A DNA stretch of 64,000 nt. It comes from Escherichia coli. GTDB taxonomy: Bacteria; Pseudomonadota; Gammaproteobacteria; Enterobacterales; Enterobacteriaceae. The notes under the pieces are model-generated. The model had not been told where the DNA came from and ran no database searches. It saw nothing but the letters and a program-made list of their open reading frames with translations. Positions 62,913-63,087 of the stretch are shown piece by piece. How positions within the stretch are numbered: position 1 is the stretch's first letter; every line of letters starts with the position of its first letter. The DNA is taken from assembly GCF_003334255.1 (NCBI RefSeq), contig NZ_QOWU01000011.1; one strand, written 5' to 3'. The position numbers and the translations under genes were made by a program.

Positions 62913-63087
62913 CATAAATATGGATTAAATTGCTGCGACATGTCGTTATGTGATGGATATTCCAATTTTCAAATTAAGTTGAATTATTGAGATTATTATT
63001 AACCACCTAATTTTACAGCAGATAAAATTCATAAAGTTCATTAATTGATAATTAATATGGATTATTTCATAACCATGATATGGATTA
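62913..63087. promoter_or_regulatory. araE control region with TATGGAT direct repeats resembling AraC half-sites
   Basis: atatggatta at 62913-62922, tgatggatat at 62943-62952, atatggatta at 63055-63064 and 63078-63087; AraC half-sites contain TATGGATAA/TTATCCATA-like cores. Confidence 0.45.

Follow-up and report, generated by a model that had tools for sequence, protein, structure and literature searches.

The intergenic region upstream of araE in Escherichia coli carries four copies of a short direct repeat, which raises the question of what these copies are for and how they relate to the control of the gene by AraC. The locus lies in the last 2.6 kb of the 64-kb stretch of DNA analyzed here (the window), which correspond to the E. 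coli chromosome around araE, as established by the open reading frame (ORF) list, genome matches, and the RefSeq annotation of an identical locus. This neighborhood has a 100% match in 5,424 of 5,426 complete E. coli genomes. According to the same ORF list and annotation, the araE coding sequence, encoding the arabinose-proton symporter, occupies positions 61418..62836 on the minus strand (ATG at 62836) and is preceded by kduD, also on the minus strand (63151-63912). The two genes are separated by 314 bp (62837-63150) with a G+C content of 32%. A terminator scan and an inverted repeat identify the kduD intrinsic terminator, a hairpin followed by a T-run, at 63109..63130 (minus strand), and this is the upstream limit of the araE control region.

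An earlier note on this DNA had described four TATGGAT-core repeats situated 80 to 250 bp upstream of the araE start, in two pairs with spacings of about 30 and 23 bp. That description is accurate. Three of the copies are exact on the plus strand (copy 1, 62919-62925; copy 3, 63056-63062; copy 4, 63079-63085) and share a longer stretch, ATATGGATTA, in a repeat search, while copy 2 is the one-mismatch variant GATGGAT at 62952-62958 of the same strand. Together they span 83 to 249 bp upstream of araE, with hexamer-to-hexamer spacings of 33 bp (copies 1 and 2), 104 bp (copies 2 and 3), and 23 bp (copies 3 and 4). TATGGAT has only 11 matches in the whole window, counting both strands. In 20,000 dinucleotide-preserving shuffles restricted to the 314-bp intergenic region, at least three TATGGAT on one strand were obtained with P of ∼5e-5, at least four ATGGAT on one strand also with P of ∼5e-5, and any 9-mer present three times with P of ∼0.001, indicating that the repeat is real and not a product of AT-richness. 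These local shuffles, together with the cross-genus invariance described below, rule out chance or base composition as the source, and the leftover probability of a chance origin is negligible.

Explanations unrelated to transcriptional control were also considered. A 57-aa ORF (62946..63119) overlaps the repeats but is unconserved outside the hexamers, so a coding role was discarded. A search of the region for structured RNA gave no Rfam family match, only two sub-threshold hits (E values of 0.5 to 0.8). Nor are the repeats part of the kduD 3′ end, as they are positioned downstream of the terminator and are kept in Phytobacter, where kduD is not upstream.

Conservation was assessed in 80 araE loci from species-representative genomes of about 25 Enterobacteriaceae genera, a set that stands beside ∼420 further araE relatives outside it. 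The 75 distinct upstream regions were aligned with MAFFT, and a one-per-genus comparison covered 23 genera. The four hexamers are virtually unchanged across 74 Enterobacteriaceae araE loci, which argues that each of them is under selection. TCCATA is found on the araE strand at about −248, −225, and −88 from the ATG in nearly all loci. Within Escherichia, sampled with four divergent E. coli strains and two further lineages of the genus, no polymorphism falls in any of the four hexamers.

The identity of copy 1 becomes apparent when the motif is read in the direction of araE, i.e., on the minus strand, where TATGGAT becomes ATCCATA. The 17-bp AraC half-site, TAGC-N7-TCCATA, has TCCATA as its "B-box," and on this reading the assignment of the repeats to the araE regulatory region in the earlier note is borne out. 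Copy 1 constitutes the B-box (62924..62919) of an I1-type half-site, cAGCaatttaaTCCATA, located at 62919..62935 on the minus strand and matching TAGC-N7-TCCATA at 9/10 positions; E. coli araI1, as checked in the araBAD sequence, is TAGCATTTTTATCCATA. The AGC and TCCAT of I1 are invariant across the 23 genera. An I2-type half-site, tgctgtttccgACCTGA, follows at 62898..62914 on the minus strand. Its B-box has the ACCTGA sequence of araBAD I2, is placed 21 bp downstream of the I1 B-box as a direct repeat, and gives the half-site a 4-bp overlap with the −35 element (CTGACA), as in PBAD; the TGAC of this region is invariant across genera. On these features, the I2-type half-site is the real partner of I1. 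The earlier note overlooked it because it has no TATGGAT core, and had instead taken copies 1 and 2 for the proximal AraC pair. This pairing does not stand, since the partner of I1 is I2, 21 bp downstream, and copy 2, which lacks an A-box, coincides with the CRP site. Copy 1 is thus the B-box of a canonical half-site (9/10), copies 2 to 4 are all without A-box, and copies 3 and 4 resemble the B-box-only half-site araO2.

Alignment with the araBAD promoter (CTGACG-18-TACTGT) places the core araE promoter at 62871..62901 on the minus strand, with the −35 CTGACA at 62901..62896 and the −10 TATTTT, of which TA..TT is invariant across genera, at 62876..62871. The spacer is 19 bp in Escherichia, Salmonella, and some others and 18 bp, as in PBAD, in most genera (comparison of window positions 62837-62901 with positions 510-575 of locus L082). 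We infer a transcription start near A62864-A62867. A62864 lies 7 bp past the −10, is invariant while the rest of the leader varies, and is probably the start itself. A consensus promoter scan did not detect ParaE, a miss that is expected, and uninformative, for an activator-dependent promoter. A scan also reported a terminator-like hairpin with T-run inside the promoter spacer (62875-62893, minus strand), which is probably fortuitous since its stem is unconserved in other genera.

The CRP site lies at 62946..62967 on the minus strand, its core, TGGAA-tatcca-TCACA (62964..62949), matching TGTGA-N6-TCACA at 8/10 positions. The genus consensus, TGTAA-tgtcca-TCACA, matches at 9/10, and the right half is invariant. 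TCACA stands 29 bp from the I1 B-box at 74 araE loci, and likewise in araBAD in six taxa (E. coli, Salmonella bongori, three Klebsiella-type loci, and Citrobacter). As read from the sequence, the araE promoter is an AraC/CRP-controlled promoter built like that of araBAD. The Schleif laboratory reportedly located the AraC and CRP sites of the araE promoter by footprinting. Operator order and position are equal in ParaE and ParaBAD (PMC2893085), and the proximal part as delimited here (CRP, I1, I2, and −35) agrees with that published arrangement. ParaE is activated by AraC and arabinose (PMC2893085, PMC10547716). Activation by AraC-arabinose at I1-I2 with CRP is hence known biology with which the sequence agrees, and these proximal elements are already known.

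The two remaining copies are further upstream, just downstream of the kduD terminator. D2, gatcatcataaTCCATA, at 63079..63095 (minus strand), contains copy 4 as its hexamer (63084..63079), and D1, ttatgaaataaTCCATA, at 63056..63072 (minus strand), contains copy 3 (63061..63056). Both are in the same, araE-sense orientation as I1 and upstream of the CRP site, with D1 137 bp and D2 160 bp from the I1 B-box. Neither has a TAGC A-box; the corresponding positions read "gatc" and "ttat" and are unconserved. The distal pair of AraC half-sites put forward in the earlier note is consequently not a canonical one: a regular AraC dimer site, i.e., two 17-bp half-sites in 21-bp direct repeat, was rejected for D2-D1 on both spacing, which is 23 instead of 21 bp, and A-box, which is neither present nor conserved.

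The distal hexamers are under strong purifying selection, and this selection is restricted to them. In the 75-region alignment, the distal ATCCATAT motifs are conserved equally with I1, the CRP site, and the −35. The TCCATA of D2 is invariant in 23 genera and 72 distinct sequences; D1 has an invariant TCCAT followed by A or G. Among the 23 genera, every column from the terminator to the CRP site varies except those of the D2 hexamer and of five D1 positions out of six; the remaining 121 columns have a mean pairwise identity of 41%. Anchored profiles limit the conservation to the hexamer plus one or two flanking bases in D1 and D2, while I1 also keeps its AGC; the A-box-equivalent positions are 44% (D2, 11 bp) and 45% (D1) identical. 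Since both sites are retained in Phytobacter, though the upstream neighbor there is not kduD, they belong to araE. The same anchored profile reveals an AT-rich block, consensus TTAAAAATnAnnnnATTAAaAA, at 62995..63016 (minus strand), moderately conserved, about midway between D1 and the CRP site and at a fixed distance from the latter. It could be a bend or an architectural-protein site aiding a short loop.

The distances between these elements fall into few classes. D2 and D1 are 23 bp apart in 70 of the 75 sequences, 33 bp in three Raoultella sequences, and 24 bp in one; a further sequence gave 36 bp, with a D1-I1 distance of 125 bp, probably through mis-assignment of the hexamer. D1-I1 measures 137 to 139 bp in 54 sequences and 127 to 130 bp in 20, with none at 131 to 136 bp. 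Length thus changes in steps of 8 to 11 bp, the distance being otherwise held within ±1 to 2 bp, and these D1-I1 and D2-D1 classes indicate indels of about one helical turn. These steps hint at a face-of-helix constraint, an argument that is soft because few independent indel events underlie them and the LSJC7-type loci are at 132 bp. In addition, the in vivo helical repeat reported for ara loops is 11.1 bp, by which 137 and 160 bp are non-integral numbers of turns.

To place the distal sites beside a proven looping operator, araO2 served as positive control, the araC-araB intergenic regions of other genera being reached via truncated AraC proteins. E. coli araO2 is GAAACCAATTGTCCATA. Its TCCATA is invariant in Salmonella, Klebsiella, and Citrobacter, its A-box is non-consensus (GAAA or GGCA), it is on the same strand as I1, and the O2-I1 distance is 209 to 212 bp across genera. 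In a Sort-seq analysis of PBAD, every araO2 mutation in P43-P48 raised expression, and the validated T43A, C45G, A46G, and T47A mutants place P43-P48 at the TCCATA hexamer (PMC11983282). D1 and D2 match araO2 both in sequence and in pattern of conservation, i.e., they share the signature of the one proven AraC looping operator. In the araC loci L083-L089, recovered for this comparison, the AraC gene calls are truncated (83 to 136 aa), with araC split into two or three ORFs, and these are probably frameshifted or error-prone assemblies. Two of them, L087 and L088, differ from E. coli in homopolymer lengths over their whole extent; they resemble error-prone assemblies of E. coli and were excluded from the distance table.

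The correspondence between the two promoters extends to the order of the elements (distal site, CRP, I1, I2/−35), the I1 type (TAGC-N7-TCCATA), the ACCTGA B-box of I2 21 bp downstream with its 4-bp −35 overlap, the 29 bp between the CRP TCACA and the I1 B-box, and a distal site consisting of an intact TCCATA without A-box, on the I1 strand, at a distance kept within a few base pairs. They differ in that araE has two distal sites, 23 bp apart and at 137 and 160 bp, compared to the single araO2 at 211 bp. Moreover, the would-be araE loop encloses neither an O1 site nor a divergent araC promoter, the araE CRP spacer carries an extra conserved TCCA, and the 8- to 11-bp distance jumps of the araE distal sites have no counterpart in araO2. 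Looping and repression have been demonstrated for araBAD, whereas the araE arrangement is known here from sequence.

The distal architecture has a discernible lineage distribution. The core clade combines two distal copies with a CRP-site TCCATC that never varies. In outlying Enterobacteriaceae, the register of I1, I2, and the CRP site is unchanged and only one distal TCCAT[A/G] is present; its distance to I1 is 152 bp (Cronobacter), 151 bp (Franconibacter), 150 bp (Cedecea), or 132 bp (LSJC7-type loci), and none of these four has TCCA in the CRP spacer. In two Erwiniaceae (Mixta and Pantoea ananatis), I1 and the CRP site are present and no distal copy was found; the araE upstream region of Rahnella is different altogether. 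The series from none to one to two distal sites plus a CRP-site B-box amounts to a natural experiment on the acquisition of looping operators.

We propose, with a probability that we put at roughly 55%, that D1 and D2 are O2-like AraC half-sites that loop to the promoter and lower basal araE expression. AraC occupancy of the two sites, loop formation, and the resulting effect on expression are predicted as follows. Without arabinose, an AraC dimer would contact I1 with one subunit and D1 or D2 with the other, closing a loop of ∼140 to 160 bp with the CRP site inside it. Such a loop would prevent AraC from occupying I2, hold down basal araE expression, and leave AraC in place for a rapid response. 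When arabinose is added, the dimer would move to I1-I2, and CRP would bind; arabinose-loaded AraC on I1 and on I2, overlapping the −35, activates araE transcription. The intrinsic affinity of D1 and D2 for AraC should be low because only one of the two recognition boxes is present, which counts against the proposal. As with lac O2/O3, gal OE/OI, and deo, the bivalent regulator would become locally more concentrated at the main site through a weak remote operator. Differing from those systems, an AraC dimer bridges the sites with one DNA-binding domain each, and AraC itself switches from looping to activation. Also to be set against the proposal are the 23-bp spacing of the D2-D1 pair, compared to the canonical 21 bp, and the softness of the helical-phase argument, and we know of no report in the classical work of AraC-dependent repression of araE.

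An alternative is that D1 and D2 make up an autonomous AraC dimer site, comparable to O1 or to the site upstream of araFGH. It would be filled as a tandem pair, with no loop to I1, and would serve as an auxiliary activating site, hold a local store of AraC, or block read-through from kduD. Two B-boxes on one strand at a 23-bp spacing that is kept in almost all genera are what such a site might look like, and AraC is said to tolerate altered half-site spacing (Carra & Schleif 1993). We regard it as unlikely nevertheless: both sites lack an A-box, the spacing is not 21 bp and reaches 33 bp in Raoultella, the single distal copy of the outgroup genera is left unexplained by a dimer site, and the D1-I1 distance appears constrained in a manner that an autonomous site would not need. 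Just as improbable in our estimation is that the distal ATCCATA motifs serve a protein other than AraC, whether another regulator or an architectural factor, or some other DNA-level role, their B-box likeness being coincidental. The conserved stretch is only 6 to 7 bp, too short for a factor to be assigned from it, and a semi-conserved AT-rich block is nearby. The hexamer is, however, identical to the B-boxes of I1 and araO2, on the same strand of an AraC-regulated promoter and with an O2-type conservation pattern, and the lack of an Rfam match and of conservation in the overlapping 57-aa ORF gives no handle on another function.

Copy 2 calls for separate consideration. It is the hexamer TCCATC (62957..62952) in the spacer and right half of the CRP site, TGGAAtatccaTCACA, and its distance to I1 is 33 bp in every sequence. 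Its likeness to the other copies may be without function, copy 2 being only a CRP site, for which we see even odds. The register is that of the araBAD CRP site, whose spacer has no TCCA, and TCCA is likewise missing from the CRP spacer of the outgroup araE promoters. Yet none of the 68 distinct core-clade sequences departs from TCCA, although CRP-site spacers are normally free to vary, and it is seen only in lineages with two distal ATCCATA copies. The choice between a CRP site only and a composite CRP/AraC element is about even.

A more elaborate arrangement may be conceived for the core Enterobacteriaceae, a two-plus-two system in which D2 and D1 pair with the CRP-site TCCATC (C) and I1. Each of two apo-AraC dimers would close its own loop, D1-I1 and D2-C in parallel, and the second dimer would physically bar CRP from its site as long as arabinose is absent. 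This double-loop reading is motivated by the co-occurrence pattern, lineages with one distal copy having no CRP-spacer TCCA and all lineages with two having it, and by the loop lengths: in nearly every genus, the difference between D1-I1 and D2-C is exactly 10 bp (23 versus 33 bp), and in Raoultella it is 0 bp (33 versus 33 bp). We regard this speculative reading as unlikely.

The textbook example of a DNA loop is the one that AraC forms between araO2 and araI1, and it is usually presented as specific to araBAD. The araE gene sets the positive feedback and the all-or-none character of arabinose induction, its basal level determining the induction delay and population heterogeneity. If D1 and D2 act as proposed, the transporter gene would also be held looped, poised, and repressed, which would bear on quantitative models of the ara switch and on engineered strains that keep the native ParaE; if the distal sites are inert, what is left is the already known araE promoter only. 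In the full-text literature searched, the scope of which did not extend to the primary promoter paper, AraC ChIP-seq, or RegulonDB, upstream AraC half-sites or looping at araE are undescribed, and the distal araE operators provisionally appear to be new.

Two Escherichia loci of the comparative set deserve mention. In Escherichia sp. MOD1-EC7003, a 9-bp deletion between D1 and the CRP site brings D1-I1 to 128 bp versus 137 bp; tblastn found no kduD in the 1.5 kb upstream, and the terminator is present. The strain labeled E. coli SCPM-O-B-8794 differs from the window at 46 of the 314 intergenic positions, compared to 7 to 10 in other E. coli, and judging by this divergence it may represent a cryptic Escherichia clade or another species.
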